A stretch of 64,000 nucleotides of DNA, from NCBI GenBank assembly GCA_934086185.1, contig CAKOHW010000002.1, positions 31,377 to 95,376 on the forward strand. Direction: 5' to 3'. The position numbers and the translations under genes are program-made. Shown piece after piece: positions 16,617 through 63,726 of this stretch. The DNA comes from an uncultured Bacilli bacterium. GTDB lineage: Bacteria; Bacillota_I; Bacilli_A; RF39; UBA660. A model generated the notes under the pieces. It was not told the DNA's origin. It ran no database searches and saw only the letters and a program-made list of their open reading frames with translations. How positions within the stretch are numbered: the stretch's first letter is position 1; every line of letters begins with the position of its first letter.

Positions 16617-16830
16617 AAAAAAACACGTATATTTCTAAGGACGAAATACCGTGTTACCACCTTAATTCATGTATAATAATACATCTCAATACTTTAACGC
16701 AGTTAACGTAATATTCTACTAAATTCAAATATTCTGCTCCATCGCTACCTTCTATTAATTCATTTATTAGTTTACACCAACCACTAACTCTCTATAAAAC
16801 AAATTAATATACTCCTCAACTTCATTGCAT
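16617..16830 (-). promoter_or_regulatory. T-box leader controlling the HD-valS operon
   Basis: Minus strand shows the stem I motif AGAGAGUUAGUGGUUGGUG (about 16775-16795). The T-box sequence AAUUAAGGUGGUAACACGG lies at about 16649-16667. It overlaps the terminator ACACGGUAUUUCGUCCUUAGAAAUAUACGUGU + U7 (16617-16655). Upstream promoter TTGAAA(16861-16866)-17-TATAAT(16838-16843). Candidate Val specifier GUA at 16746-16748. Confidence 0.85.
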
Positions 16831-16931
16831 TTTCTATATTATAAATTATTTATTTTATTTTTTCAATAAAAACTTATTGAGTTATAAATTATTTTATTAT
16901 ATAATAATTCTAGAATAGAAAGAGGTGTAAT

Positions 16932-18335: not shown

Positions 18336-18358
18336 AAAGCCATAAAAGGCTTTTTTAA
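18334..18358. terminator. bidirectional terminator between the ATPase gene and paralog P1
   Basis: AAAAAGCC-ATAAAA-GGCTTTTTT between convergent genes. Confidence 0.6.
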
Positions 18359-20244: not shown

Positions 20245-20275
20245 ATTAACTCAAACTTCCTATCTTTATACTTAA

Positions 20276-20326
20276 AGTTTATCAAATCATTTTATTATTT
20301 ACAATATACAAATTTTGTTTTATACT
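20276..20326. promoter_or_regulatory. back-to-back divergent promoter module (P1 copy)
   Basis: Minus strand: TTGTAA(20299-20304)-17-TGaTAAACT(-10 at 20276-20281). Plus strand: TTTACA(20298-20303)-17-TATACT(20321-20326). The two -35 boxes overlap by 5 nt. Confidence 0.55.
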
Positions 20327-20332
20327 TAATTT

Positions 20333-20400
20333 AGTAGAACATCTAATTGATGGCTACCGTTTTTTTGGTAAGTGCTAATTATTTAATTAGCACTATTTTT
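20333..20400 (+). ncRNA. candidate cis-antisense sRNA (antitoxin-like), copy 1
   Basis: Starts about 7 nt after TATACT. Hairpin GTGCTAATTA/TAATTAGCAC (20372-20393) + TATTTTT acts as a plus-strand terminator. Complementary to the 3' end of the minus-strand small-ORF RNA. Confidence 0.45.
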
Positions 20401-20565
20401 ATGACCAAAACTCCCTATTATCTATATAGAAGGATGAATAGGAATACAATTACCATAATGATAATTGAACAGTCTAAAAACCTTATAATGAAAGTTTTTA
20501 CTTTCAAGCTAAGTACCTACTTTTTCTACTTTAAAAATAGAAGGTAGCCATCAAACCAAATGTTC
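20337..20565 (-). other. structured small-ORF RNA (type I toxin-like mRNA), copy 1
   Basis: Promoter TTGAAA(20596-20601)-16-TATTAT(20574-20579). The 5' arm GAACAUUUGGUUUGAUGGCUACC pairs with the 3' arm GGUAGCCAUCAAUUAGAUGUUC: about 22 bp with 3 G-U pairs, which works only in the minus-strand RNA. Confidence 0.55.
20418..20507 (-). CDS. 29-aa hydrophobic peptide (type I toxin candidate), copy 1
   Basis: TTG start sits in the hairpin UGAAAGU-AAAA-ACUUUCA. Peptide MKVKTFIIRFLDCSIIIMVIVFLFILLYR. Conserved with copy 2 through mostly synonymous or conservative changes. Confidence 0.5.
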   Translation of the reverse strand: MKVKTFIIRFLDCSIIIMVIVFLFILLYR

Positions 20566-20641
20566 AAGACACTATAATACTCATATAATTTATTATTTCA
20601 ATAATTTCGAAAAAACATTACAAAAAAAGAAATTACATAAA

Positions 20642-23600: not shown

Positions 23601-24941
23601 TTAATCAGTATCAAGATAACATATTTGTGAACCATTTCCAATCAGGAATAAAATATTATTATCAAAAATCTCATTTAAAATAGTAGTATCATCCGGATAT
23701 GCCACTTTAGTACTAAGTTGATCCAAATATTCAACATCAGGTGAATATTCTCTTAACGCTATATATCCTATGTTTTCAAACATAGTAGTATGTGTATAAT
23801 AATATAACATATCATCATCAATTAAAGATAAATTTTTACTACAACTCTCTTTATAAGAAGATGTACTATTTATTTTGTTCTTCGCATCAAGTCCAGTAAG
23901 TATTTTTTGGTTACTTTTTAATTCATTAATATACTCACTTTTTAACCAATCATTTATTGTCATGTCCTTATTTATTCTAACTATATAAGGCCCTGAACAT
24001 ATACTACTATTATTTATACAATCACTTAAATGCATATCTCCCAGTGAAGCAGTAATAGGAATGTATAATTTATATTTTTTACTAAGTCCATCACTAACAC
24101 CTGATATTGTTTTTGTTATTGAATTATCTGTTACATTTATATTTATCTCTGCTATTCTACTTGTATCATCTATAGTTATTACATCATCTTCAATTGATTG
24201 TGATTCTCCTTTTTTTATAACTAAATCTGTATTTAAATTTTTAGATGTCTTTCTATTCTTTATTGTTATCTTATGTGTATCTGGTTCTATTCCAACAAAC
24301 TTATATTTTCCATCTACTATCTCACTTGTTTGTTCTTTACTATTGATTACTACATAGTCATTTTCACTAGAATTTGTTACTGTTCCTTGTATAGTAAGTG
24401 CCTTTGTATCAAATATATCTATCTTTGCTTCTAATGTTTTACCCATATCAATACTTTGGTCTACATTCATTTCTTTATATTCTACTTCTATTACATATGT
24501 CTGTACTTCTTTTGAATCAATTTGATTTTCTATTATATATGAGTTTTCATTTGGAAATGTACTTTCACTTACTCCATTACATGTTTTACCAGTTACACTA
24601 CTAGAACATGTTACAGTATATTTTATATCATCTAATCTTGTGAATGTATTTATTACATTTACTAATCCTACACTATAACTATCTACATTATTATCTCCAT
24701 TATTTGTTACGGTAAATGTTTTAGTTCCTAATGTTGTACCTGGTACTATATTTGTTCCAGTTATTACATCACTATTATCACTGTATGTTAGTTCTAGATT
24801 AGCAGTTGATATACTTATTGATTTATTATTAGTATTTCCTTGTATTCTTGTTAAATAATATCCATATGTTAAACCAATAAGTGCTAAACTTATTATACTT
24901 ATTCCTACAATACTTATTATTATTTTATTTTTTCTACTCAT
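23601..24941 (-). CDS. paralog P2: head type b plus unique tail type delta
   Basis: The first ~231 aa are near-identical to P5 and P3 (MSRKNKIIISIVGISIISLALIGLTYGYYLTRIQGNTNNKSISISTANLELTYSD…). The C-terminal ~200 aa are unrelated to the other copies. Confidence 0.9.
   Translation of the reverse strand: MSRKNKIIISIVGISIISLALIGLTYGYYLTRIQGNTNNKSISISTANLELTYSDNSDVITGTNIVPGTTLGTKTFTVTNNGDNNVDSYSVGLVNVINTFTRLDDIKYTVTCSSSVTGKTCNGVSESTFPNENSYIIENQIDSKEVQTYVIEVEYKEMNVDQSIDMGKTLEAKIDIFDTKALTIQGTVTNSSENDYVVINSKEQTSEIVDGKYKFVGIEPDTHKITIKNRKTSKNLNTDLVIKKGESQSIEDDVITIDDTSRIAEININVTDNSITKTISGVSDGLSKKYKLYIPITASLGDMHLSDCINNSSICSGPYIVRINKDMTINDWLKSEYINELKSNQKILTGLDAKNKINSTSSYKESCSKNLSLIDDDMLYYYTHTTMFENIGYIALREYSPDVEYLDQLSTKVAYPDDTTILNEIFDNNILFLIGNGSQICYLDTD
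24248..24941 (-). repeat. head-type-b DNA block (P2 copy)
   Basis: Near-identical to the 5' ~0.7 kb of P5 and P3. The spurious antisense ORFs 24398-24604 and 44086-44292 translate almost identically. Confidence 0.7.
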
Positions 24942-32796: not shown

Positions 32797-34719
32797 TTAA
32801 TTCTCTAAAATTTTATACGGATTTGCCTTTGTTCCATTTCCGCTTGAAATTTGTGTATTTGACTTAAAATTAATTACCGGTCTAAATGAGTAGTCATCAT
32901 TAACTCTTCCTCCACTAAATAATCCAGAACTATCAAGCAGATAAACATAATCACCACCGCTTTGATACATAGTAGGTAAGGCATCACTACGATTGCTATC
33001 AAAATCGCTAGGTGCTAAAGTCCAAAACTCTAAGTGACTTGATTTTTGATAATTATTTATTAAATAATAAGCAAGATTTTCAGTATCACCATTATCTCCA
33101 CCTGCAAAAGAAATTTCATCTGCTGTTAAAGTCCCAACATACATATTTGTATTGTCTGCAAACTTTTTCATATTTGTACCCTTACATTTTAGTGTTGGTT
33201 CTTCTGCTGTTCCTTTTCTCAAACGAGTACTAGAATCATAATAAAACCCTTCATTCGCAATTTGTTCATCTAATATTTCAACACTAGTTAATTCTTTTGA
33301 ACTACTAGAGATTAAATACGCTTTATTATTTAAACACCAGTCTCCAACCTTTAAATAAGATAAATAACTCGTTAATAATCCAATTTGAAAATTTTTAAAT
33401 GCAGTTACCATTGATTTATCATTATTTGTTTGTCCGTTTAAATAATTCATTAAATATCTTATACCTCGGTTTTTTTTACCATCAGATGCAGTTAATGTAT
33501 TTGCTGCATATTGTGTATATCCAAAATATCCAGTCTTTATAGACCCACCAGTTGTAGTTGGTATATCCCAATTTCCATCAGCCGTTTCACAAGTACTATC
33601 TTGATCTTCTAATATTAATTTAATACTTCCATCGCCAACAATACGAACCACTTTCCAACACATTCCTGCAAAATTAACATAATTATCAGTTACATTTCCT
33701 CTAAAGTAATAAGAATTACCATAGTCATCAATTGCTAAACTTAATGTTCTTTCATTTTCTCCATTTATTTCTTTTGCTGGTTTAGTTAATGGTGTTTCAC
33801 TATATATCGTTCTTCCTTCTCCACCTTTTTTAGCATTGTTTATTATTACATCTTTCAATAAAATTTTACTATCACTTATTTTTATTACATTTATTGTTAC
33901 AGTACTACCCGTTATTGTTATATCAGCATCTGCTATATTCTTTTCATCGTTGTATGTTATATTTGATCCTGATGCTGATGGTTCTCCTTTTGATACATTT
34001 AGTGTTGTTTGTTTTGTTGTTGTAGTCTTTCTATTTTTTATTGTCACTTTGTGTGTATCTGGTTCTATTCCAATAAACTTATATTTTCCATCTACTATCT
34101 CACTTGTTTGTTCTTTACTATGTATTACTACATAATCATTTTCACTAGAATTAGTTACTGTTCCTTTTATTGTTAATGATTTAGTATCAAATATATCTAT
34201 CTTCGCCTCTAATGTTTTACCCATATCAATACTTTGGTCTACATTCATTTCTCTATATTCTACTTTTATTACATATGTTTGTACTTCATCTTTATTTATT
34301 TGATTTTCTATTATATATGAGTTTTCATTTGGAAATGTACTTTCACTTACTCCATTACATGTTTTACCAGTTACACTACTAGAGCATGTTACTGTATACT
34401 TAACATCATCTAATCTTGTAAATGTATTTATTACATTTACTAATCCTACACTATAACTATCTATATCACTGCTACCACTATTTGTTACTGTAAATGTTTT
34501 TGTAGGTAAAGTTGTACCCGGCACTATATTTGTTCCAGTTATTACATCTTTATTATCGCTATATTCTAATTTTAAATCTGCTGTTGTTACACTTATTGAT
34601 TTTGTATTAGTATTACCTTGTATTCTTGTTAGGAAATATGCGTATGTTAATCCTAATAATGCTAATAATACTATTGCTATTCCTACTACGCTTACAATAA
34701 TTTTTTGCTTTTTATTCAT
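32797..34719 (-). CDS. paralog P3: head type b, shared stalk, tail type beta
   Basis: Head and stalk are near-identical to P5 through about residue 297. The tail (…NYVNFAGMCWKVVRIVGDGSIKLILEDQDSTC…) is homologous to the P6 tail. Ends GNGTKANPYKILEN. Confidence 0.9.
   Translation of the reverse strand: MNKKQKIIVSVVGIAIVLLALLGLTYAYFLTRIQGNTNTKSISVTTADLKLEYSDNKDVITGTNIVPGTTLPTKTFTVTNSGSSDIDSYSVGLVNVINTFTRLDDVKYTVTCSSSVTGKTCNGVSESTFPNENSYIIENQINKDEVQTYVIKVEYREMNVDQSIDMGKTLEAKIDIFDTKSLTIKGTVTNSSENDYVVIHSKEQTSEIVDGKYKFIGIEPDTHKVTIKNRKTTTTKQTTLNVSKGEPSASGSNITYNDEKNIADADITITGSTVTINVIKISDSKILLKDVIINNAKKGGEGRTIYSETPLTKPAKEINGENERTLSLAIDDYGNSYYFRGNVTDNYVNFAGMCWKVVRIVGDGSIKLILEDQDSTCETADGNWDIPTTTGGSIKTGYFGYTQYAANTLTASDGKKNRGIRYLMNYLNGQTNNDKSMVTAFKNFQIGLLTSYLSYLKVGDWCLNNKAYLISSSSKELTSVEILDEQIANEGFYYDSSTRLRKGTAEEPTLKCKGTNMKKFADNTNMYVGTLTADEISFAGGDNGDTENLAYYLINNYQKSSHLEFWTLAPSDFDSNRSDALPTMYQSGGDYVYLLDSSGLFSGGRVNDDYSFRPVINFKSNTQISSGNGTKANPYKILEN
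33828..34719 (-). repeat. head-b + stalk DNA block (P3 copy)
   Basis: About 0.9 kb matching 43741-44629. Antisense ORFs 33836-34135 and 43746-44045 are near-identical. Boundaries are approximate. Confidence 0.7.
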
Positions 34720-34769: not shown

Positions 34770-36644
34770 TCATTCACTAATTAATTCACTTTTTGAGATA
34801 AATCCTTTATATAATTTTGCACCATATACCGATCCATTTCTATTAGAATTGGCAACATTAGTTTTAGACAACATATAAACTGCAATTTTAGAAACTGTTA
34901 TTGAATCATTTGTAATAAAATGCATTACATATTTATCATCATCAACCCATGTATATTTTACTTGAGTTAAATAGTTGTTATTTCCAAAATTGTTAGCAAA
35001 TATAGCAGGATAAATATCAGGATATTCTTCAGTTCCAAATTTTCCATTTAAATATAATGTATATGGTGTATTAGGTTCTAAATTAGAACTTAAATTATAT
35101 TCTTTAATCTTTGTCGTTGTTGCTCCATTATAATTTAATACTTGTTCTTCACCATTAGTTATAAGATTTGTTTTTGCTACGTTATTATTAGAAATAATTG
35201 GAAATCTTGCAGCCATAACCGCTCCATTTGAATATCCATTATTAGAACCAGCGTCAGTAATATCAGAAAATAAATTAATAACTTGAAAGCCAACCAAATT
35301 ATTAGTTGTATTATTAGCATGGTAAACTAATAATCTATCTCCAGGCAATCTATCAACCACAAATGATGCATGAGTAATACCTTTATAATAATTTGATTCA
35401 AATGTAGAAAAGAATATAATATCACCAGGTTTTACATTACTTACATCGTTATTTAATTTATAAGAATAACCATTTTCATCAGCATAGTGTGCTAAATCAT
35501 TAGCCAAATATCTTCCTTCTCTGTATTTATTTGTTGGTAAAGTAATACCATAATCAAAGGATTTTATATTAGTATTATTTGAATTATATCTTGAATCATT
35601 ATAAGTTATACCCCCTAATACTAAACTAAGAAAACTAGAACAATCTAACTCATTTGTAGTAGTAGTATCAAAGGCAGTCTTTGCTGAAGCAAACGTTAAA
35701 TTAGCCATATTATTTCTGTAAGTTTGTGCTACACTGAACATATCAACAATAGTACCTAAAGAATAAGGTGCTAAAAAAGATTCATCATCATAATACGTTA
35801 TTCCACCAATTTCAATAACGTTATTAGAAACATCTAAATCAATTTTTATATTTTTTATATTAGAAGTAATAGTAATAACATTTGCATCTATACTAGCTGT
35901 ATTTCCTTTTTTGATTGTTATTTCTTTACTTTCTTTTACAGTTCCCTGTTTATCTTTTACATATATTGTATGAGTCCCTGGTTCTACTGCTGCTATCAAA
36001 TATTTATTATCTGTTGTTATCATACTTTTTCTCGGGTTGCTATGTAATTCAACATAATCTCCCTCACTTACATTTGTTACTGTTCCTGTTACATCTACAA
36101 TATCTTGTAAATTATAGATTTGTACTCGTGCTGATACTTTCTTATTCATATCATCACTTTGGTCTACATTCATTTCTTTATATGTTACTGTTAATTTATA
36201 TGTTTGTGTTTCTCCTACATCTATTGAATTAGTTACAATTATTCCTGCTAATTTTGGAAATGTTGTTTCATTAACTCCCTTACATGTTTTATTTTCTTTA
36301 CTACTTGTACAAGTTAATGTATAAACCATATCATCAGGCCTTGTTAATTCATTTACTAATTCTTCTAAATATACAGCATAGTTATTTACAGTTGCATTAC
36401 CATTATTTGTTACTGTAAATTCTTTGTCAGTTAATGTAGTACCTGGCATAATATTATTACTTGTTATAGTACCATTACCATCTGCATAAGTTAACTCTAG
36501 ATTAGCAGTTGTTACACTTATTGATTTTTCATTAGTATTCCCTTGTATTCTTGTTAAAAAGTATGCATATGTTAATCCTAACAATGTTAAAAGTACTATT
36601 GTTATTCCTACTGCACTAACAACTATCATTTTTTTTCTTTTCAT
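34770..36644 (-). CDS. paralog P4: head type c fused to an NlpC/P60-like cysteine peptidase module
   Basis: ATG at 36642-36644 with an AAGAGGT SD is preferred over the ORF-track start at 36662. The first ~252 aa are near-identical to P6. The tail has LDCSSFLSLVLGG (Cys), GDIIFFS…THASFVV (His). 50-nt gap to P3. Confidence 0.85.
   Translation of the reverse strand: MKRKKMIVVSAVGITIVLLTLLGLTYAYFLTRIQGNTNEKSISVTTANLELTYADGNGTITSNNIMPGTTLTDKEFTVTNNGNATVNNYAVYLEELVNELTRPDDMVYTLTCTSSKENKTCKGVNETTFPKLAGIIVTNSIDVGETQTYKLTVTYKEMNVDQSDDMNKKVSARVQIYNLQDIVDVTGTVTNVSEGDYVELHSNPRKSMITTDNKYLIAAVEPGTHTIYVKDKQGTVKESKEITIKKGNTASIDANVITITSNIKNIKIDLDVSNNVIEIGGITYYDDESFLAPYSLGTIVDMFSVAQTYRNNMANLTFASAKTAFDTTTTNELDCSSFLSLVLGGITYNDSRYNSNNTNIKSFDYGITLPTNKYREGRYLANDLAHYADENGYSYKLNNDVSNVKPGDIIFFSTFESNYYKGITHASFVVDRLPGDRLLVYHANNTTNNLVGFQVINLFSDITDAGSNNGYSNGAVMAARFPIISNNNVAKTNLITNGEEQVLNYNGATTTKIKEYNLSSNLEPNTPYTLYLNGKFGTEEYPDIYPAIFANNFGNNNYLTQVKYTWVDDDKYVMHFITNDSITVSKIAVYMLSKTNVANSNRNGSVYGAKLYKGFISKSELISE
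35888..36644 (-). repeat. head-type-c DNA block (P4 copy)
   Basis: About 0.75 kb near-identical to 54002-54758. Antisense ORFs 35915-36232 and 54029-54346 are near-identical. Confidence 0.7.
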
Positions 36645-36861
36645 ATTTGTACCTCTTTTCATATTTTAATATCTTTATAATTTAATTATATATAACATCT
36701 AATGATTATTAATGTCAAAAAATGTCATAACACACAAAAAAAATTATATAACTACTTCTATTAATAAATTTAAAATCAGAAAAAATAAATTATATACTAT
36801 TTACTTATCACAACATAAAATTCAAACTCATACTCATAAGAGTACTTTCTACTCTATTTAT

Positions 36862-36912
36862 ATTTTATCAAATCATTTTATTATTTACAATATTAAAATT
36901 TTGGTTTATACT
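36862..36912. promoter_or_regulatory. back-to-back divergent promoter module (P4 copy)
   Basis: Minus strand: TTGTAA(36885-36890)-17-TGaTAAAAT(-10 at 36862-36867). Plus strand: TTTACA(36884-36889)-17-TATACT(36907-36912). Confidence 0.55.
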
Positions 36913-36918
36913 TAATTT

Positions 36919-36990
36919 AGTAGAACATCTAATTGATGGCTACCTGTTTTTTTGAGATATGTGCTAATTATCTAATTAGCACATTTTTTA
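36919..36990 (+). ncRNA. candidate cis-antisense sRNA (antitoxin-like), copy 2
   Basis: Downstream of TATACT. Terminator ATGTGCTAATTA-TC-TAATTAGCACAT + T6 (36959-36990). Confidence 0.45.
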
Positions 36991-37150
36991 AACCAAAACT
37001 CCCTAAAATCTTCGTAAGAGGATATATAGAAAGATGATTAACATTATGATAATCAAACGGTCTAAAAACCTTATGATGAAAGTATTTACTTTCAAACTAA
37101 GTACCTCCTAACTATTTAAAAATAGAAGGTAGCCATCAACTTAAATGTTC
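36923..37150 (-). other. structured small-ORF RNA (type I toxin-like mRNA), copy 2
   Basis: The 5' arm GAACAUUUAAGUUGAUGGCUACC pairs with the 3' arm GGUAGCCAUCAAUUAGAUGUUC. The anti-SD UACCUUCUA pairs with the SD UAGGAGGUA (9 bp). TATTAT -10 at 37159-37164. Confidence 0.55.
37003..37095 (-). CDS. 30-aa hydrophobic peptide (type I toxin candidate), copy 2
   Basis: AGGAGG SD 8 nt before the TTG. Peptide MKVNTFIIRFLDRLIIIMLIIFLYILLRRF. Confidence 0.5.
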   Translation of the reverse strand: MKVNTFIIRFLDRLIIIMLIIFLYILLRRF

Positions 37151-37227
37151 GAGACACTATAATACACTAAAATATTAAAAAATTTGTCACATTTTGAAAA
37201 AACATAAAAAAATAATCAAATTAATGA

Positions 37228-42475: not shown

Positions 42476-44641
42476 CTAACTTTCTATAATTTTGTATGGA
42501 TTTGAAATAGTACCATTGCCACTTAATAATTTAGTATTTGATAAAAGCACTATCATAGGACGAATACCTATATTATTATTGTTATAATTAGAATCATAGA
42601 TATTTAAATTAAAATTACCTTGCGAAAAAATATAATAAACTCCATCAACACCAAACTCCCCACTATAAGTTGCTCTTGATAAAGACCAATATTTTGTTTG
42701 TGCATTATCATACAAATAATAATTCATATTGTTGAAATCCATTGCACCACCTGCATAAACCATTTCATCTGCTGTTATTGTTCCTATATAATCATCTACA
42801 CTATCTTCTTTATCTGAACATTTATATGATGATTTTTTTTCTTCGCCTTTACCATTCAATCTCTTGGCGGCCATGTAATATACTGTTTGGTTTAGATCCG
42901 GGTATCCTGTAGATTTTCCATTTTCATCAAATATATAGTCAGTTTTTCCGCCTAAACACCATTTTTCATTTTTTAATAGTGATTTTTTATTTTCTAGTCC
43001 GCTTGATATATACCATGTTTTTAATGTTGAGTATAATCCTCCACTATAATTTTTATAATCAGCATATTTCTTGCTATTAACTGTTTTATAACCGTATACA
43101 ACTGTAGCGGCATTATTTATTAAAGCTGATTTGGTATCTGATGATGTTATTGTACTACACAATCCTTCTTTGGCTAAGATTATTTTTATTGAGCCGTCAC
43201 CTTCAATTCTTACAACTCTCCAACACATATTATTGAATTCTATATAATTATCTACAACTCCACCTCTATAATAATAACTTGTTCCATAATCATCTTCTGC
43301 TATTGATAATGTTGATTCTGCTGAATATGATTTTGCTGATAATTTTTTTGTTTTCATTGTTATTGAACTTGTACTACTTGCTGGTGCTGTTGTCACTTTA
43401 TATATATTTGATAAATTCGTTGTTGTTTTTATAGTATCTGTGCTTGATGAATTCGAATTTGCATAATCTGATACCAAATATTTTCCTACTAATGTTGTAT
43501 TACATGTACCATCATTATATTTACATGTTGCTACTCCCGTTAAGGTAAATTTGCCAGTACTTTCATCTATTGTATAACCTGTTCCATATGTCCAGTAATA
43601 TCTTTGATATGTTGTTGTTATACTAATTGATGTTTCTGTTGTTGCTTCATCTACTCGATCAGTATAATATTTCGAAGATGTTTGTTGTGCAGGTGTTGTT
43701 AATGGTATCATTCTAAATGTTGTTCCATTTTTTTCTTGTTTTGCATTGTTTATTATTGCATCTTTCAATAAAATTTTACTATCACTTATTTTTGTTACAT
43801 CTATTGTTACAGTACTACCTGTTATTGTTATATTAGCATCTGCTATATTTTTTTCATCATTGTATGTTATATTTGAACCGGATGCTGCTGGTTCTCCTTT
43901 TGATACATTTAGTGTTGTTTGTTTTGTTGTTGTAGTCTTTCTATTTTTTATTGTTATTTTATGTGTATCTGGTTCTATTCCAATAAACTTATATTTTCCA
44001 TCTACTATCTCACTTGTTTGTTCTTTACTATTGATTACTACATAATCATTCTCACTAGAATTTGTTACTGTTCCTTGTATAGTAAGTGCCTTTGTATCAA
44101 ATATATCTATCTTTGCTTCTAATGTTTTACCCATATCATCACTTTGGTCTACATTCATTTCTTTATATTCTACTTCTATTACATATGTCTGTACTTCATT
44201 TTTATTTATTTGATTCTCTAATATATATGAATTTTCATTTGGAAATGTTGTTTCACTTACACCGTTACATGTTTTACCAGTTACACTACTAGAGCATGTT
44301 ACTGTATATTTTATATCATCTAATCTTGTAAATGTATTTATTACATTTACTAATCCTACACTATAACTATCTACATTATTATCTCCACTATTTGTTACAG
44401 TAAATGTTTTAGTTCCTAATGTTGTACCTGGTACTATATTTGTTCCAGTTATTACGTCACTATTATCACTATATGTTAGTTCTAGATTAGCAGTTGATAT
44501 ACTTATTGATTTATTATTAGTGTTTCCTTGTATTCTTGTTAAATAGTATCCATATGTTAAACCAATAAGTGCTAAACTTATTATACTTATTCCTACAATA
44601 CTTATTATTATCTTATTTTTTCTACTCATATGTAACATCAC
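42476..44641 (-). CDS. paralog P5: chimeric copy (head type b + P3-type stalk + P1-type tail alpha)
   Basis: Residues 5-235 are near-identical to P2, and similarity to P3 continues to about residue 300. The remainder parallels P1 (…YYWTYGTGY…DESTGKFTLTGV…CWRVVRIEGDGSIKIILAKEGLCSTITSSDT…). Probable start is ATG at 44629 or 44638. Confidence 0.9.
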   Translation of the reverse strand: MMLHMSRKNKIIISIVGISIISLALIGLTYGYYLTRIQGNTNNKSISISTANLELTYSDNSDVITGTNIVPGTTLGTKTFTVTNSGDNNVDSYSVGLVNVINTFTRLDDIKYTVTCSSSVTGKTCNGVSETTFPNENSYILENQINKNEVQTYVIEVEYKEMNVDQSDDMGKTLEAKIDIFDTKALTIQGTVTNSSENDYVVINSKEQTSEIVDGKYKFIGIEPDTHKITIKNRKTTTTKQTTLNVSKGEPAASGSNITYNDEKNIADANITITGSTVTIDVTKISDSKILLKDAIINNAKQEKNGTTFRMIPLTTPAQQTSSKYYTDRVDEATTETSISITTTYQRYYWTYGTGYTIDESTGKFTLTGVATCKYNDGTCNTTLVGKYLVSDYANSNSSSTDTIKTTTNLSNIYKVTTAPASSTSSITMKTKKLSAKSYSAESTLSIAEDDYGTSYYYRGGVVDNYIEFNNMCWRVVRIEGDGSIKIILAKEGLCSTITSSDTKSALINNAATVVYGYKTVNSKKYADYKNYSGGLYSTLKTWYISSGLENKKSLLKNEKWCLGGKTDYIFDENGKSTGYPDLNQTVYYMAAKRLNGKGEEKKSSYKCSDKEDSVDDYIGTITADEMVYAGGAMDFNNMNYYLYDNAQTKYWSLSRATYSGEFGVDGVYYIFSQGNFNLNIYDSNYNNNNIGIRPMIVLLSNTKLLSGNGTISNPYKIIES
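43741..44629 (-). repeat. head-b + stalk DNA block (P5 copy)
   Basis: See the P2 and P3 copies. Boundaries are approximate. Confidence 0.7.
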
Positions 44642-44761
44642 TACTTTCCATCATAACTAGTTTATCAATTTTTTTATTCAATTTGAACAAACAACTTTAT
44701 TGTTTTTATTATAAATTACAACTTATGAATAATTTGTCAAATTAAATACTTACAAAAATAC

Positions 44762-44827
44762 AAAAAATCATATAATTATTACCCTCTGACAAAACTTTTG
44801 TTTAAGAGAGTATTAGGCTATATAATT
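44762..44827 (-). promoter_or_regulatory. conserved leader hairpin + U-tract, P5 copy
   Basis: Same element as at 24962-25028. The outer stem carries one G-U pair in the minus-strand RNA (plus-strand T to C at 44769). Confidence 0.5.
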
Positions 44828-44882
44828 CTGTACTTTTATAAAATTGTTTTTTTATTTTCAAGTACTTATCTACTTTAACTAC

Positions 44883-44933
44883 ATTATACATTAACAATTT
44901 ATTATTTACAATACTTATATTTTATTTTATAAT
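44883..44933. promoter_or_regulatory. back-to-back divergent promoter module (P5 / kinase-like ORF copy)
   Basis: Minus strand: TTGTAA(44906-44911)-17-TATAAT(44883-44888). Plus strand: TTTACA(44905-44910)-17-TATAAT(44928-44933), facing the ORF at 44961. Confidence 0.55.
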
Positions 44934-48125: not shown

Positions 48126-49454
48126 TCAATAACTCCAATACTCAGTATAATTACCATCTTCTTTATAATAATCATTCATATCAACATGCCAATAAAAATT
48201 ACTTACTAACGCTTCTTTAGTATATTCCTTAATTAAAGCACCATTATAAGGTTTAGCATACCATAAGCTTTCAGCAATATAATATTTATTATCTTTAATA
48301 CCAGCAACAATAGCAATATGGCCTCCATCAATACCATGACCACTTATTAAATCTCCAGCCCTAATACTATTATTATTTACTGCATCTGTTAATTTTATTT
48401 TTTTACCCAAATCTGTCATATCAGGTATTGTACTAACTCCAGCTCCTAAATCTTCACATTCAAATCCACCATTATAAACTATCCAACTAATAAAACCACT
48501 ACAATCAAAACCATTTTTTCTAATTCCTTCACTAGGAAAAGAATATATTTCACATCCCCAAGTAGCAGGCCCATACATAGAACTCTCTATACTTTGATAT
48601 CTAGAATTACTTAAATATAACCCTTTATGATAATATCTACCCTCTCCATCTACTACTGAACCAACTCCATAAGGATGTAATCTACCATTTTCACTAAAAT
48701 AAGAAATTCTATAAGGAAACTCTAAAGTTAAAAATCTAACTGCAGCTAATACTCCAGCCCTAGTTTTATACCCAGCCTCATTAACACGACTTAATAATAT
48801 TTCATCTAACAAATCATTATCACTCTTTGAATACATTCCACAAGATAAATAACTTCTATTATAATCATAATATTCTCCATAAGTACTTATCTTATCAGTT
48901 ACTAATACATCAATATATTCACTAATACTATCTACACTAACCATTATTTTAGTATTACCACTCTTAATACCAGTAACAACCCCATCACTACTAACACTTG
49001 CTACACTATCATCTAATGATTTATATAATATATTACTATCTACTTTCCCCAATACTTCATAACTAACATTTATTTTCTTTATACCACCAATTGCTAAATA
49101 AATTTTATCTTTATTAACACTAATACTTAATACTTTACTTAAATCTTTATTATCATATCTCTTTACATTATTAAACTTATTTCTTAAATAAATATACTTA
49201 GAATCACTATACTCAATAATACATTTATTATCCTTCATACTAACCCATTTTACATTATTTAAATCATTACCTACATAACAATAAGTTTCATAATCACTAC
49301 TTAATTCTATAATTATATTATTATCATTATCTAAATATATATTTTTAATATTATTATATTTATTAAATAAAAAATATAAACAAACACCACTAAATATAAT
49401 AAACCACACTATAGTACTTATTACTATAATATATTTCTTTTTATTATTTTTCAT
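48126..49454 (-). CDS. membrane-anchored Big_2 + NlpC/P60 cell-wall hydrolase
   Basis: N-terminal TM. Ig-like SVASVSSDGVVTGIKSGNTKIMVSV. NlpC/P60 FDCSGFISWIVYNGG and GGHIAIVAG. Confidence 0.75.
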   Translation of the reverse strand: MKNNKKKYIIVISTIVWFIIFSGVCLYFLFNKYNNIKNIYLDNDNNIIIELSSDYETYCYVGNDLNNVKWVSMKDNKCIIEYSDSKYIYLRNKFNNVKRYDNKDLSKVLSISVNKDKIYLAIGGIKKINVSYEVLGKVDSNILYKSLDDSVASVSSDGVVTGIKSGNTKIMVSVDSISEYIDVLVTDKISTYGEYYDYNRSYLSCGMYSKSDNDLLDEILLSRVNEAGYKTRAGVLAAVRFLTLEFPYRISYFSENGRLHPYGVGSVVDGEGRYYHKGLYLSNSRYQSIESSMYGPATWGCEIYSFPSEGIRKNGFDCSGFISWIVYNGGFECEDLGAGVSTIPDMTDLGKKIKLTDAVNNNSIRAGDLISGHGIDGGHIAIVAGIKDNKYYIAESLWYAKPYNGALIKEYTKEALVSNFYWHVDMNDYYKEDGNYTEYWSY

Positions 49455-52595: not shown

Positions 52596-54758
52596 TTACG
52601 AAATTTCGTAAGGGTTACTAATGGTCCCATCTCCACCAGTAATTTGTGTACTAGATTTTAAAGAAACTGCTGGACGGAACGAAAATGCACAATCAGTATT
52701 ATTCTCAACATTAACAAAATCAACTACACCACTATGATCTACATTAATTGCAGAATCATGATTATTATTAAAGTGGTAAGGCGACAAAGACCAAAACCAT
52801 AACGAATTTGTTTTTTGATAATCATTTATTAAATAATAATCTGGATTACTATATTTAGCTTTACCACCTGCATATACTATTTCATCTGCTGTTATTGTAC
52901 CTACATACATATCAGTATTATCTGCAAATTTATTCATGTTTGTTCCATTACATTTTAATATTGGTTCTTTTGTTTTTTTACCGTTTAAACGAACATATGA
53001 ATCGTAATAAAATAATGTATTTTTAACTTGTTTATCTAGTATTTCTTGACTAGTTAATGCTGTAGTATTATCACTACTAGTAGCATACGCTTTATCATTT
53101 AAACACCAATCACCTGCTTTTAATTTATCTAAATAATTTGCTAAAGGGCCTGTTTGGAAATTCTTAAATGCATATGCCATTGATCTGTCATCATATGATG
53201 GAATAAATGCACCACCATTTAAATAGTTCATTAAATATCTTGTACTTGAATTTTTTGTCCCATCAGAAGCAATTAATGTTTTTGCATCATGTTGAATATA
53301 TCCAAAATAGCCTTTTTTTAAAGATCCTCCAGTTAAAATAGGAATATTCCAATTTCCATCACTTGTTACACAAGTACTGTCTTGATCTTCCAATATTAAT
53401 TTTACGCTTCCATCACCTTCTATACGTACTATTCTCCAACACATTCCTGCGAAGTTTACATAATTATCTATTACATTTCCTCTATAATAATAACTAGTTC
53501 CGTAATCATCATTAGAAATCGATAATGAAGACTCATATTCTTTTTTTTCAACATCTACAATTGCTACTTTTGTACTTTTGCATGATTTAACATACCAAGT
53601 TTGAGGAACAACAGGATAAGATATATATTTTCCTACTATTGTATTACTACACTCAGATACAAAACTACCATCAGATGAAGTCATCCAAGGTCTTGCATCA
53701 TTTTCTGTTGAACCATAATACCATTCTGATTGTGTACTCATATCGAGTTCTTGTTCTTCAAATTTACCACTATCTCTTGTATAACTTATTTCTTCTGCAA
53801 CTTTTGTTTTTGGAGTATTTAAAAATTCTGTACCATTTGCATTTGTTTTTGCACTTGTGTATATTGCACTTGCAAGTGTTCCTTCATCAAATGGATTATA
53901 ATCTTTTGTTTCACCAATATCTATTGTTAATGTTGAAGCAATTGATTTTATATCAACATTAACTGTTTGTGAATCGTTTGTTACTGTTATATTTGTTCCA
54001 TTTACACTTGCTGTATTTCCTTTTTTGATTGTTATCTCTTTACTTCCTTTTACAGTTCCTTCCTTATCTTTTACATATAGTGTATGTGTTCCTGGTTCTA
54101 CTGCTGCTATTAAATATTTATTATCTGTTGTTATCATACTTTTTCTTGGATTACTATGCATCTCTACATAATCTCCAGCACTTGCATTTGTTACTGTTCC
54201 AGTTACATCTACAATATCTTGTAAATTATAAATCTGTACTCGTGCTGATACTTTCTTATTCATATCATCACTTTGGTCTACTCCCATTTCTTTATATGTT
54301 ACTGTTAATTTATATGTTTGTGTTTCTCCTACTTCTATTGAATTAGTTACAATTATTCCTGCTAATTTTGGAAATGTTGTCTCACTTTTACCTGTACATG
54401 ATCCATTTTCTTTACTACTTGTACAAGTTAGTGTATAAACCATATCATCAGGCCTTGTTAGTTCATTTACTAATTCTTCTAAATATACAGCATAGTTATT
54501 TACAGTTGCATTACCATTATTTGTTACTGTAAATTCTTTGTCAGTTAATGTAGTACCTGGCATAATATTATTACTTGTTATAGTACCATTACCATCTGCA
54601 TAAGTTAATTCTAAATTTGCAGTTGTTACACTGATACTCTTATCATTAGTGTTTCCTTGTATCCTTGTTAAAAAGTATGCATACGTTAATCCTAATAATG
54701 CTAATAATACTATTGTTATTCCTACTACACTAACAATTATTTTTTGTTTTTTGTTCAT
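52596..54758 (-). CDS. paralog P6: head type c, unique middle, tail type beta
   Basis: The first ~252 aa are near-identical to P4. The tail …NYVNFAGMCWRIVRIEGDGSVKLILEDQDSTC… is homologous to P3. Ends GDGTISNPYEIS. Confidence 0.9.
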   Translation of the reverse strand: MNKKQKIIVSVVGITIVLLALLGLTYAYFLTRIQGNTNDKSISVTTANLELTYADGNGTITSNNIMPGTTLTDKEFTVTNNGNATVNNYAVYLEELVNELTRPDDMVYTLTCTSSKENGSCTGKSETTFPKLAGIIVTNSIEVGETQTYKLTVTYKEMGVDQSDDMNKKVSARVQIYNLQDIVDVTGTVTNASAGDYVEMHSNPRKSMITTDNKYLIAAVEPGTHTLYVKDKEGTVKGSKEITIKKGNTASVNGTNITVTNDSQTVNVDIKSIASTLTIDIGETKDYNPFDEGTLASAIYTSAKTNANGTEFLNTPKTKVAEEISYTRDSGKFEEQELDMSTQSEWYYGSTENDARPWMTSSDGSFVSECSNTIVGKYISYPVVPQTWYVKSCKSTKVAIVDVEKKEYESSLSISNDDYGTSYYYRGNVIDNYVNFAGMCWRIVRIEGDGSVKLILEDQDSTCVTSDGNWNIPILTGGSLKKGYFGYIQHDAKTLIASDGTKNSSTRYLMNYLNGGAFIPSYDDRSMAYAFKNFQTGPLANYLDKLKAGDWCLNDKAYATSSDNTTALTSQEILDKQVKNTLFYYDSYVRLNGKKTKEPILKCNGTNMNKFADNTDMYVGTITADEIVYAGGKAKYSNPDYYLINDYQKTNSLWFWSLSPYHFNNNHDSAINVDHSGVVDFVNVENNTDCAFSFRPAVSLKSSTQITGGDGTISNPYEIS
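54002..54758 (-). repeat. head-type-c DNA block (P6 copy)
   Basis: See the P4 copy. Confidence 0.7.
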
Positions 54759-54834: not shown

Positions 54835-54906
54835 AAAAAAATTATATAATTATTAACCCCCCCCCCGACCAAACTTTTGTTCGGGAGAGAATTAGGCTAT
54901 ATAATT
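54835..54906 (-). promoter_or_regulatory. conserved leader hairpin + U-tract, P6 copy (contains the C10/G10 tract)
   Basis: Same element. The inner stem is changed to CCCGAAC…GGUCGGG, and the G10 run pairs with CUCUCCC. Confidence 0.5.
54857..54866. repeat. homopolymeric C10 tract (G10 on the coding strand)
   Basis: Ten consecutive C in an extremely AT-rich genome. It replaces the 6-nt GCTCCT/CCCTCT of the paralogous leaders. Confidence 0.9.
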
Positions 54907-55082: not shown

Positions 55083-55274
55083 ATGTAATAAACAAAACAA
55101 TTAACACATTATGTACTAGTGCCAGTTAAATAAACCTTTACCCCCTGAATAGAAGAAGTATTAGTGTACCCAACATGATTAATATTAATAATCAAATGGA
55201 GGTTTGATTACGCATACTATCACACCCCTTTACTACTTAAATAGTTTGAGGTAAGCACTAAAAAATGAATGTTC
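55021..55274 (-). other. structured small-ORF RNA, copy 3 (same architecture, different sequence)
   Basis: Promoter TTGAAT(55305-55310)-16-TATTAT(55283-55288). The 5' arm GAACAUUCAUUUUUUAGUGCUUACC pairs with the 3' arm GGUAGGCAUUUAAAUAAAUGAAUGUUC (about 25 bp with bulges and G-U pairs). Confidence 0.5.
55138..55215 (-). pseudogene. 25-codon hydrophobic ORF interrupted by an in-frame TGA (toxin-like, possibly inactivated)
   Basis: AAGGGG SD 9 nt before the ATG. Reads MRNQTSI-TGA-LLILIMLGTLILLLFRG-TAA. TGA at 55192-55194. Confidence 0.35.
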
Positions 55275-62391: not shown

Positions 62392-63726
62392 CTATAAGAA
62401 TCTATCCCAATAATATCTTCCAGTATTAGATAATGTATTAAAATGTTCTTTAATTTGCGAACTAATTAATTTTGCTTTTTTGTTTATTGGAGTTCCATCA
62501 TTATAATATGGTTTTTTTGTTGATCTAGTCATCATGTCGGAAAACAAAACAGCTCTATCTTCTAAATAATTTTGCCTTGAATAATATGATAAGAAATAAG
62601 CATCATTTGGATTTGAAAAATTAAAATCATAGGTACTATCATTAGAACCATAACTAAATCCTTCAGGATTATAGGATTTCATTATTTCCTCTAAATTTAA
62701 TGTCGGATTTTTTTGTTTCATATAAATATCAATATAGTGCATTAACTCATGATGTAAAGTATACTCAAATAAATTAGTGCCATTTGTTCCGATAGTTATC
62801 GTTATATTACTTTGATTTCTACCATCAGTCATTCCCGAATAATTTCCATATATTTTATTTACTATATATATTCTAAGAGAAACATTATTGTCACTCATTT
62901 CTTTAAAGAAATTATTTGGATATTTTCTTAATGTTACTTCTAATTCTTTTAAATATTTATTTATCTCATTATCATCATTTTGCTTTTCAGTATTTATAGA
63001 ACCTCCGATCAAATAATCACCGTATTCATCTTTATATATGATTTTAACTAAATACTTATTTTCTAATATTTTTCTATATTCATTATTTTTTTCTGCTTGA
63101 GTTTTTTCTATTACTGGAGTCTTTTCTTCAGATAAAATAGTATTTTCTTTATTTGTAATATTTGAATTCTGATTAGATTTATTAGTATTAGTACCACTAT
63201 TATTATTGTTTATATTAGTATTTGTTTTAGGCATTTCAGTATTAGAACTATTTTCTTTATTTTCTACTTTCTCCCATACTGCATAAAGAGTTATATCTTC
63301 TTCAAGTAATACTTTATCATAAATAGGAATTTCATTTTTATCAACCCATCCATTAAAAATATAACCGTCTCGTGTAGGATCTTTTGGAAGTGTAAGTTCA
63401 GTATTTTTATTTATAGTAATACTATCTATTTTATTTCCTTCTTTAGTATCAAAAGTTATTGTTATTGTATCTTTTTTATCTTCTTCCTTATTGTTTTTTA
63501 TAGAGCAAACATATTTGCTAGTTTTTAAAACTGTTTTAGTTTTACCATCAGAACATTTATAAGTATTTGTAAATATCCCTTTATCCTTATAAACAACAAA
63601 ACTATCATTATTATAATCTCTAATTTTAATTATAGGACTATTATTAAATGATAGAGCAACTATAAAGTCTAAAAATATTAAACCTATCATAGAACACAAT
63701 ATTATTATTATTTTTTTCTTCTTCAT
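62392..63726 (-). CDS. membrane-anchored protein with a Listeria-Bacteroides-type repeat and an HExxH metallopeptidase-like domain
   Basis: N-terminal TM, TRDGYIFNGW…ITLYAVW repeat, Asn-rich linker, TLHHELMHYID motif. Confidence 0.65.
   Translation of the reverse strand: MKKKKIIIILCSMIGLIFLDFIVALSFNNSPIIKIRDYNNDSFVVYKDKGIFTNTYKCSDGKTKTVLKTSKYVCSIKNNKEEDKKDTITITFDTKEGNKIDSITINKNTELTLPKDPTRDGYIFNGWVDKNEIPIYDKVLLEEDITLYAVWEKVENKENSSNTEMPKTNTNINNNNSGTNTNKSNQNSNITNKENTILSEEKTPVIEKTQAEKNNEYRKILENKYLVKIIYKDEYGDYLIGGSINTEKQNDDNEINKYLKELEVTLRKYPNNFFKEMSDNNVSLRIYIVNKIYGNYSGMTDGRNQSNITITIGTNGTNLFEYTLHHELMHYIDIYMKQKNPTLNLEEIMKSYNPEGFSYGSNDSTYDFNFSNPNDAYFLSYYSRQNYLEDRAVLFSDMMTRSTKKPYYNDGTPINKKAKLISSQIKEHFNTLSNTGRYYWDRFL

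Follow-up and report, generated by a model that had tools for sequence, protein, structure and literature searches.

Mosaic structure and allelic variation in a family of putative surface proteins of an uncultured gut Bacilli species

Six paralogs and the modules of P5

This report concerns P5, one of six related genes (P1 to P6) in a 64,000-nucleotide stretch of DNA, here called the window, from an uncultured Bacilli bacterium (assembly GCA_934086185.1, contig CAKOHW010000002.1, positions 31,377 to 95,376). The window has a GC content of approximately 24% and was read with the standard bacterial code. The six paralogs are mosaics of shared modules, and general recombination very likely made them so. 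All are encoded on the minus strand in the same orientation and are dispersed among housekeeping genes between window positions 18355 and 54758, as six intact genes at five loci, each with a start codon and a signal. P3 follows P4 by 50 nucleotides (nt) and is the only one without a promoter-like site and leader of its own.

18355-20244, minus strand: P1, head a without a stalk, insert and tail alpha; the partner of the P5 tail
23601-24941, minus strand: P2, head b (D1 and D2a) and a unique tail of 160 amino acids (aa); the closest partner of the P5 head
32797-34719, minus strand: P3, head b (D1, D2a and D2b) and tail beta, no insert
34770-36644, minus strand: P4, head c and a tail with a weak NlpC/P60-like match
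42476-44629, minus strand: P5, head b, stalk, insert and tail alpha
52596-54758, minus strand: P6, head c, a diverged insert and tail beta

The general order of modules is a camelysin/TasA-like signal and first strands, a β-sandwich head (D1), zero or two small β-sandwich stalk domains, a short linker helix, an optional β-rich insert, and a globular DUF6273-like tail or a tail of another type. The open reading frame (ORF) of P5 extends to a GTG at 44641, and the ATG at 44629, from which the protein begins MSRK, agrees with the starts of the paralogs. Its parts are as follows.

44630-44911, minus strand: promoter-like site (TTGTAA-17-TATAAT at 44911-44883), then a leader of approximately 250 nt
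44483-44629, minus strand: aa 1-49, N-terminal hydrophobic helix and the most conserved motif of the family, GLTY[AG]Y[FY]LTRIQGNTN.KSIS
44096-44482, minus strand: aa 50-178, head domain D1, a β-sandwich of type b
43934-44095, minus strand: aa 179-232, stalk domain D2a, a CarboxypepD_reg-like β-sandwich absent from P1
43775-43933, minus strand: aa 233-285, stalk domain D2b, common to P3 only and 92-97% identical to it at the nt level in sliding windows
43730-43774, minus strand: aa 286-300, linker helix LLKDAIINNAK, where P3-type sequence crosses over to P1-type
43310-43729, minus strand: aa 301-440, post-junction segment and β-rich insert (KYYTDR…TGKFTLTG…CKYNDGTC…), shared with P1 and absent from P3
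42476-43309, minus strand: aa 441-717 and stop codon, globular tail alpha, DUF6273-like

AlphaFold2 modelled the full-length P5 protein with a predicted local distance difference test score (pLDDT) of 87.9, and the tail with a pLDDT of 94.6 and a predicted template-modelling score of 0.90. In the model a helix (aa 3-31) leads into a low-confidence, near-invariant segment (aa 29-49), followed by the D1 β-sandwich (aa 51-178), two small β-sandwiches (aa 182-229 and 235-282), a helix (aa 288-297), the β-rich insert and a globular α/β tail.

Mosaic similarity and its breakpoints

Identities were taken from an all-against-all BLASTN comparison of the six genes and a comparison of the window with itself. 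P2 is 95.8% identical to P5 over nt 1-695, after which the similarity is lost abruptly, at the C-terminal edge of D2a (…IKNRKT; window 43935). P3 is 87% identical to P5 over nt 1-952 and 86.6% identical to P2 over nt 1-695. At the aa level, D1 of P5 has 97% identity to P2, approximately 86% to P3 and 57-59% to P1 and P6. P4 and P6 share a head of another type (91% nt identity over nt 1-763), and the P1 head is diverged, with 57-59% aa identity to the other heads; between head types D1 is 67-72% identical. Tail alpha is common to P1 and P5 (75.9% nt identity over approximately 1.1 kb, 58% aa) and tail beta to P3 and P6 (73.5% nt identity over approximately 0.75 kb, 57% aa). Synonymous divergence (dS) is 0.15 for the P2/P5 head, 0.25 for the P4/P6 head, 0.36 for the P3/P5 head, 0.69 for tail alpha and 0.85 for tail beta, a 2- to 5-fold contrast between modules. 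The original prediction, made from the letters of the window, had sorted the heads and tails into these same groups and the sorting holds; it had also described the b-type heads of P2, P3 and P5 as nearly identical, which is true of P2 and P5 but, at the dS given above, not of P3.

A finer mosaic is seen in sliding windows. Codons 1-40 of P5 have 91-92% nt identity to P1, 98% to P2 and 67-77% to P3; codons 90-285, approximately, have 88-97% identity to P3; and the tail follows P1 at 79-88% up to about codon 550 and at 43-77% beyond it. In protein terms the P1 and P5 tails are 76% identical over aa 288-553, the N-terminal part of alpha including the insert, and 44% identical over aa 554-717. 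Within D1 there are short conversion-like patches at nt 366-414 and 423-432: in the P2/P3/P5 triple, seven consecutive sites (nt 366-414) at which P2 and P3 agree against P5 are followed by a run at which P5 and P3 agree against P2. A codon-aware three-way alignment places the crossover to the tail within a stretch of approximately 20 nt that encodes IINNAK and is identical in P1, P3 and P5 (window ~43730-43750); P5 equals P3 up to ...GATGCAATAATAAACAATGC and equals P1 from ...GAAAAAAATGGAACAACATTTAG. The path proposed for P5, with P2 and P3 as far as IKNRKT, with P3 as far as IINNAK and with the P1-type tail thereafter, is thus traced to breakpoints at the nt level. P5 is indeed a chimera, but a count of three pieces is too low, given the first ~40 codons (91% nt identity to P1), the patch at nt 366-414 and the last ~165 codons (44% aa identity to P1).

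The site patterns of the P2/P3/P5 triple are clustered, with 32 runs against 47.6 expected and none of 20000 shuffles reaching the observed value. In an incompatibility test resembling the pairwise homoplasy index, based on 225 informative sites, the observed value was reached by none of 2000 permutations. The identity profiles show sharp breakpoints, namely the abrupt loss of P2/P5 similarity and the mapped crossover, and not uniform divergence, and the breakpoints at aa ~232 and aa ~295-300 both fall between predicted domains. The mosaic pattern is therefore confirmed as real and non-random.

An explanation without recombination would have the genes diverge vertically after duplication, with the heads constrained and the tails under diversifying selection. 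The tails do evolve faster overall, with a nonsynonymous divergence (dN) of 0.26-0.29 against 0.02-0.08 in the shared b-type and c-type heads. Moreover, tails alpha and beta are homologous to one another, with 30-41% aa identity and the common motifs DDYG..YY.RG...MCW..VRI.GDGS and RP..L...G.GT..PY, so that not every difference between tails needs a swap; the claim that adjacent modules are unrelated does not hold for these two. Rates, however, cannot reverse relatedness, and the head of P5 is nearest to P2 and P3 while its tail is nearest to P1, just as the head of P3 is nearest to P5 and its tail to P6. Further, dS jumps between modules as well as dN, the site patterns are both clustered and incompatible, and one strain described below carries a substitution tract in an otherwise identical background. 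We consider that vertical divergence has almost no chance of being the explanation.

The insert module (P5 aa 330-440, window 43310-43642; KYYTDR…TGKFTLTG…CKYNDGTC…LVGKY) is 73-86% identical in aa sequence among relatives of P5, in the same proteins in which D1 is 30-50% and the tails 35-75% identical. Either the insert is under unusual constraint or it has spread recently between genes.

Strains of the same species, leaders and the wider family

Conserved neighbouring proteins were used to find 34 loci in public assemblies of human-gut metagenomes (Hadza, Nepal, MERR22, BRIT20 and others). Each locus is collinear with the window, with 98-100% identity in the housekeeping genes, and all therefore belong to the same species, an uncultured, low-GC (~24%), spore-forming member of the gut Bacilli. 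Several contigs, drawn from different studies and built by different assemblers, reproduce the window genes exactly, with 0-1 differences in 10-21 kb, which argues against misassembly of the window.

Over 13,464 bp one contig, L032, departs from the window at only 31 sites, every one a substitution within P3 nt 316-675 (window 34045-34404). Twenty-nine of the 31 are the P2 base and two the P5 base, and the sites that discriminate P2 from P3 between nt 316 and 598 are all P2-type but one, while the flanks and the donor locus are unchanged. At the left border of the tract P2 and P3 share only 15 nt, too few for an assembler path switch, and the other end is patchy. The tract is a fresh conversion of P3 by P2-like sequence, P2 being the donor type, and it bears out the earlier claim of recent gene conversion. 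Among the strains in general, where the heads of two alleles differ the bases are mostly ones that other paralogs also have, and the limits of the tracts are not the same from one event to the next; most of the near-clonal contigs have the same alleles.

Alleles were also compared locus by locus among strains with 98-99.7% housekeeping identity. At the P5 locus, L014 and L016 have a stalkless gene of 609-612 aa that joins an a-type head to an alpha tail, the latter 81-82% identical to that of P5 at the nt level. Identity in the flanks is 97.5-99.4% as far as window 44770 and again from 42524 on, so that the exchanged cassette comprises the leader and the ORF. The P2 locus is empty in three strains and in L031 holds a b-type head, 95% identical to P5 as far as aa 294, to which a GLUG-like β-helix tail is fused. 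At the P3 locus a different beta tail is found in L017, L018 and L030. P4 is absent from L014 and L016, and in L019 its site is occupied by another paralog with an insertion sequence (IS) upstream. At the P6 locus, L001 has a 751-aa allele that equals the relative P0062 by BLAST and adjoins an IS. P1 is reduced to a remnant in three strains. The related strains, in which the prediction had proposed to look for other head-tail combinations at the same loci, thus have different architectures or no gene at all there, and the P1-P6 loci are polymorphic in architecture, not fixed for one combination of modules.

Further observations were made at these loci. Insertions of DDE_Tnp_1 transposases lie at 696-1892 of L001, beside the P6 locus, and at 10896-12158 of L019, upstream of the P4 locus. 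Strains without P1 (P1 locus at 17913-18066 of L026) retain the whole leader, a piece of 155 nt with 75% identity to the core of the P1 tail, and ~26 nt from the end of the gene; the P1-less locus is an internal-deletion remnant of a different allele and not a clean absence. In L004 and L019 a single substitution at window 43285 splits P5 into ORFs of 451 and 250 aa. L004 is otherwise identical to the window and L019 otherwise differs only beside the IS-insertion boundary, which indicates pseudogenisation or on/off variation of P5.

A search with P5 returned more than 1100 database relatives, with no precomputed Pfam domain among the 120 listed, and we found no described family for P1-P6 in the literature. 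A scan of species-representative genomes gave 527 stretches, all in metagenome-assembled genomes of uncultured "Bacilli" or "Tenericutes" from the gut (human, goat and rabbit); a single genome often has 9-12 copies or more. Among the 120 relatives alpha tails occur 31 times with head a, once with head b (the P5 cluster), six times with head c and four times with other heads; P6-type beta tails are joined to heads b and c and to distant ones; and each head type includes proteins with the insert and proteins without it. The use of modules is combinatorial throughout the family. The tail module of P4 (window 34770-35777; a weak NlpC/P60-like match and a β domain) is also found on the relatives P0121-P0125 (408-455 aa), whose N-termini are type IV prepilin-like (…K-G-I-T-L-I-A-L-V-I-T-I-I-V…), and hence on a pilin-like carrier.

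The P5 leader is 83.7% identical to that of P2 and approximately 90% identical to the leader of a P3-like gene in L014 and L016. The leaders of P5 (44725-44874), P2 (24945-25075), P6 (54800-54953) and P4 (36700-36860), all minus strand, share a conserved structure in which an AT-rich outer stem of 12 bp (AGAAUUAUAUAG / UAAUUAUAUAAUU) surrounds a smaller stem and is followed by U7; the consensus fold is energetically weak, with covariation at a single pair. This hairpin and U-run, between the promoter and the ribosome-binding site, resembles a terminator or attenuator. A non-coding element of approximately 380 nt is found on the minus strand upstream of the P1 and P4 leaders (20255-20635 and 36844-37223; 82% identical) and in part upstream of P6 (54953-55348). 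It is bracketed by the complementary 12-mers TTGATGGCTACC … GGTAGCCATCAA and contains a small hydrophobic ORF with a Shine-Dalgarno-like site (20418-20507, LKVKTFIIRFLDCSIIIMVIVFLFILLYR; 37003-37095, LKVNTFIIRFLDRLIIIMLIIFLYILLRRF), and it looks like a type I toxin-antitoxin-like module or a small membrane peptide module. The corresponding ORF upstream of P6 (55170-55215, minus strand) is truncated in the window (MRNQTSI*) and intact in L002 (MRNQTFERLLILLMLSTLILLLFRG…), where 10 clustered substitutions at 55170-55199 are the sole differences from the window in 20.8 kb. An Rfam search at gathering score and E ≤ 1 found no RNA family for the leaders or the ~380-nt element, and in the window identified only an unrelated and ordinary T-box leader (16634-16834, minus strand, 121.6 bits), canonical in form, upstream of an HD-domain gene and the valS operon.

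The 3' arm of the P6 leader hairpin contains a run of ten G (54857-54866; C10 on the plus strand), the only G/C run of eight or more in the window and a candidate site for slipped-strand phase variation. It has the same length in the one other strain that carries it, and phase variation by this tract was rejected. The idea that P2 is a silent donor cassette was likewise ruled out by its own promoter-like site, leader, start codon and signal.

A dedicated system of programmed variation, acting at high frequency within a clone through a silent-cassette site, a shufflon or invertase, a diversity-generating retroelement or a novel leader-based mechanism, could make sense of the conserved junction motif that lies exactly at the breakpoint and of the P2-type donor in the clearest event, and the conserved leaders, the ~380-nt element with its small ORF and the poly-G tract have possible regulatory or recombination roles. 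Yet the gene tables list no recombinase, integrase or reverse transcriptase among the window ORFs, as the prediction had said of recombinases, and no fixed recombination sites or silent cassettes were seen in the window. All copies are full-length and none is silent, with a promoter-like site on all but P3, and their direct-repeat arrangement excludes inversion. Tract boundaries differ between events, alleles are identical in most near-clonal contigs, and shared modules are 4-13% apart at the nt level, against frequent homogenisation. We judge such a system to be highly unlikely.

Protein identity, mechanism and comparison with known systems

Searches of Pfam and NCBIfam with the six proteins gave nothing above the cut-offs; the NlpC/P60-like match of the P4 tail has an E-value of 0.009, and neither Peptidase_M73 (PF12389) in P1-P6 nor DUF6273 (PF19789) in P5 was matched in the Pfam scan. 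Residues 1-49 of P5 nevertheless appear, as judged from sequence, to resemble a camelysin/TasA (SipW-type) signal. Twenty-two of 71 relatives have sub-threshold PF12389 matches, confined to residues 4-86, with E-values down to 1.8e-4 and approximately 19 bits against a cut-off of 22.5, and a head profile aligned with TasA by hhalign with a probability of 82%, for a TasA sequence entered by hand. Scanning the N-terminal 60 residues with NCBIfam listed no signal-peptide model at E up to 10, in a search in which the HMMER filters drop most matches above ~0.1 and the presence of the SipW-type model (TIGR04088) in the library was not verified.

For the tail, DUF6273 matches are sub-threshold in two of the 71 relatives (16.9 bits against 23.5; C-terminal 55 residues, profile positions 107-171). 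Foldseek searches of BFVD with the tail model gave A0A141HRR3 as the best match (E 8.7e-5) and a DUF6273 phage protein at E 2e-3 (probability 0.97, TM 0.29), and in the PDB nothing better than E 0.84. Neither phmmer nor the 71-sequence profile found anything among PDB sequences, and tblastn with the tail found no match in 50,697 phage records. DUF6273 has been reported to resemble the C-type-lectin fold and receptor-binding domains (PMC10743442). P1-P6 appear to be built from a signal and head resembling camelysin/TasA, stalks of the β-sandwich type and a tail resembling DUF6273, which would suit surface exposure and ligand binding by the tail.

A conserved N-terminus, a variable C-terminus and a conserved junction between them are also features of polymorphic toxins, in which swapped C-terminal effectors follow a conserved trafficking region (CdiA-CT, Rhs, LXG), and both the weak NlpC/P60-like match in P4 and the presence of tail modules on other N-terminal carriers would fit such a family. 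No immunity-like small gene follows the paralogs, however; what lies downstream is spoIIGA, a HAD phosphatase, unrelated unannotated ORFs (209 and 280 aa) or a convergent ATPase. The tails are large (280-430 aa), β-rich and globular, and of DUF6273-like or GLUG type, as is typical of binding modules, and no toxin family was matched in Pfam or NCBIfam. The probability that P1-P6 are toxins of this kind is in our estimation very small.

Three further putative surface proteins, of other families, are encoded in the window, at 2747-4264, 62392-63726 and 48126-49454; two have Listeria-Bacteroides repeats (Flg_new) and one has a weak Big_2 match, and the region is rich in envelope proteins.

The mosaic structure of P5 and its paralogs is, we consider, very likely to be explained by ectopic gene conversion together with allelic replacement, both by general recombination; variable tract borders, alleles that are stable in most near-clonal contigs and direct-repeat copies lead to this conclusion. 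General homologous recombination, presumably RecA-dependent, would act in two forms. In the first, non-reciprocal conversion between paralogs would be seeded by leader and head sequence that is conserved, would transfer tracts a few hundred bp long and would be resolved within short stretches of conservation. In the second, whole alleles would be replaced between strains by way of conserved flanks. P5 itself would have arisen at the ftsZ-spoIIGA locus, where a resident gene with an alpha tail had its a-type head replaced by a b-type leader and head of the P3/P2 lineage and only later acquired the short patches of conversion. The minus strand of the window is rich in housekeeping genes (parE/gyrB-like, valS behind a T-box, mutL, rsgA, S16, prs, spoIIGA-sigE, ftsA-ftsZ, murT/gatD and greA), and any reciprocal exchange between copies that lie as direct repeats would remove essential genes such as ftsZ, sigE and mutL, so that only conversion products persist. 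Surviving breakpoints lie at inter-domain linkers (IKNRKT and IINNAK) because such recombinants can still fold. P1-P6 thus probably diversify by general homologous recombination filtered at domain linkers and not by a dedicated switch. Diversifying selection by phage, immunoglobulin A or adhesion may be the driver.

Several points weigh against this account. Among approximately 14 near-clonal contigs there is only one clean paralog-to-paralog tract, that of L032. L005 departs from the window at 22 sites in 12,312 bp, every one a substitution within the P5 head (window 44051-44546), and some of these are P2-specific; many are also present in the P5 allele of another strain, for which reason L005 was rejected as a second clean conversion and may reflect allelic recombination between strains. 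The head-tail junction of P5 is old, since the combination of head b and tail alpha is kept at 95-100% aa identity in at least 10 contigs and the tail has a dS of 0.69 to P1, and it carries no information on rate. The earlier claim of recent exchange therefore stands for head conversion, which is ongoing, and for cassette exchange between strains, but not for the fusion of the P5 head to its tail. With respect to the proteins, a Foldseek search of the PDB, for which the query was the full-length P5 model and not D1 as a separate domain, gave only generic matches of β-sandwich or carbohydrate-binding-module type (best E 1.9e-3), without TasA in the top 50, and no signal peptidase or SipW gene is present among the window ORFs. 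The TasA and DUF6273 matches are leads and not memberships, and what they suggest of function and localisation comes from weak homology.

The remaining point is that all sequences are short-read metagenome assemblies, in which an assembler might have switched between similar paralogs or co-existing strains; the P2 and P5 heads share exact runs of 50-87 nt, long enough for such a path switch, and L005 and L032 come from the same project. Against this, the six genes recur base for base in SPAdes-style NODE_, MEGAHIT-style k141_ and MERR22 scaffolds, the L032 tract with its 15-nt start and patchy end is unlike a de Bruijn path switch, and the alternative alleles lie within long contigs with collinear flanks of 98-99% identity. 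That the mosaics are artefacts of assembly strikes us as most improbable.

A more far-reaching reading, which we think unlikely, is that P1-P6 are interchangeable subunits or tips of a TasA-like surface fibre assembled by donor-strand exchange, with combinatorial lectin-like tails on portable cassettes. The near-invariant N-terminal strand and D1 would then let any paralog join a common polymer, and stalk, insert and DUF6273-like tail would together supply a combinatorial set of lectin-like heads for binding. The 5' leader and head, together with the 3' linker or C-terminal motif, would serve as the homology arms that make the tails portable. Were this so, uncultured gut Bacilli would have a new architecture for the display of adhesins, with a tail fold that may be new to the PDB.

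Of the known systems, P1-P6 appear to match Helicobacter bab/sab in mechanism and the modular Gram-positive families in architecture. The Hop/Bab adhesin paralogs of H. pylori (babA/babB/babC, sabA/sabB) are diversified by RecA-dependent intragenomic gene conversion. As with bab, P1-P6 are dispersed, full-length and presumably expressed paralogs with conserved 5' segments and variable, putatively ligand-binding parts, chimeras arise from non-reciprocal tracts (that of L032), the same locus holds different paralogs or chimeras in different strains (the P5, P2, P3, P4 and P6 loci), and no dedicated recombinase is seen in the window. They differ in being unrelated Gram-positive secreted multi-domain proteins and not β-barrel outer-membrane proteins, in swapping whole folded domains (stalk, insert and tail) at linkers, and in having no phase-variable CT repeats in the coding region, the G10 tract being in the P6 leader. 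Modular Gram-positive surface families with strain-specific cassettes include the Cwp proteins and SlpA cassette types of Clostridioides difficile and the streptococcal Alp/PspC mosaics. These likewise join one shared targeting or anchoring module to diverse functional domains and exchange whole alleles between strains by way of conserved flanks; in P1-P6, by contrast, the shared module is N-terminal and TasA-like, not CWB2 or LPXTG, and the genes lie apart from one another between housekeeping genes and do not form a single surface-protein locus.

The silent-cassette systems (Neisseria pilE/pilS, Borrelia vlsE and Mycoplasma genitalium MgPa/MgPar) resemble P1-P6 in that segmental conversion alters a surface protein. 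P1-P6 have neither a single expression site nor promoter-less truncated donors, all six being intact, and they show no signs of high-frequency switching, with alleles stable in most near-clonal contigs. Unlike the case of a diversity-generating retroelement, no called gene of the window region has a reverse transcriptase domain, the only repeats in the window are the paralogs and their leaders, and variant sites copy paralogs and are not A-specific. DUF6273 domains are reported as C-type-lectin-like receptor-binding domains of gut phages and Firmicutes that are often diversified by such retroelements (PMC10743442). The P1-P6 tails share with them weak structural (E 2e-3) and sequence similarity, the C-terminal signature RP..L…G.GT..PY and a presumed variable ligand-binding role; the similarity is sub-threshold, and P1-P6 vary by module swaps and gene conversion and not by reverse-transcriptase mutagenesis. 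With TasA and camelysin (PF12389), SipW-processed fibre and biofilm matrix proteins of Bacillus, they share a hydrophobic N-terminus followed by T-[YF]-[AG]-Y-[FY] and first β-strands (NL.PG…K.F.V.N.G) that align with TasA and PF12389, and also a highly conserved post-signal segment, which the P5 model predicts to be unstructured in the monomer. They differ in that the PF12389 matches are below cut-off and cover ~80 residues only, P5 is three times longer, with a stalk, insert and lectin-like tail that TasA lacks, and there is no sipW or tapA near P5.

Ectopic gene conversion and allelic replacement are textbook processes, and the value of the present case is a new family and clean natural evidence. 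The data show diversification at the population level by general recombination, not a dedicated or rapid switching device, and metagenomes alone were enough to catch the exchange of paralog sequence in an otherwise identical background. The confident model of the tail has no neighbour in the PDB, and the fold may be new. The family is large and unannotated, is restricted to low-GC Bacilli, all uncultured, from the gut of humans, goat and rabbit, and behaves as a hypervariable repertoire of proteins that are probably surface-exposed. It provides a natural marker for strain tracking and is a candidate determinant of interactions with phage, antibody or the mucosa.

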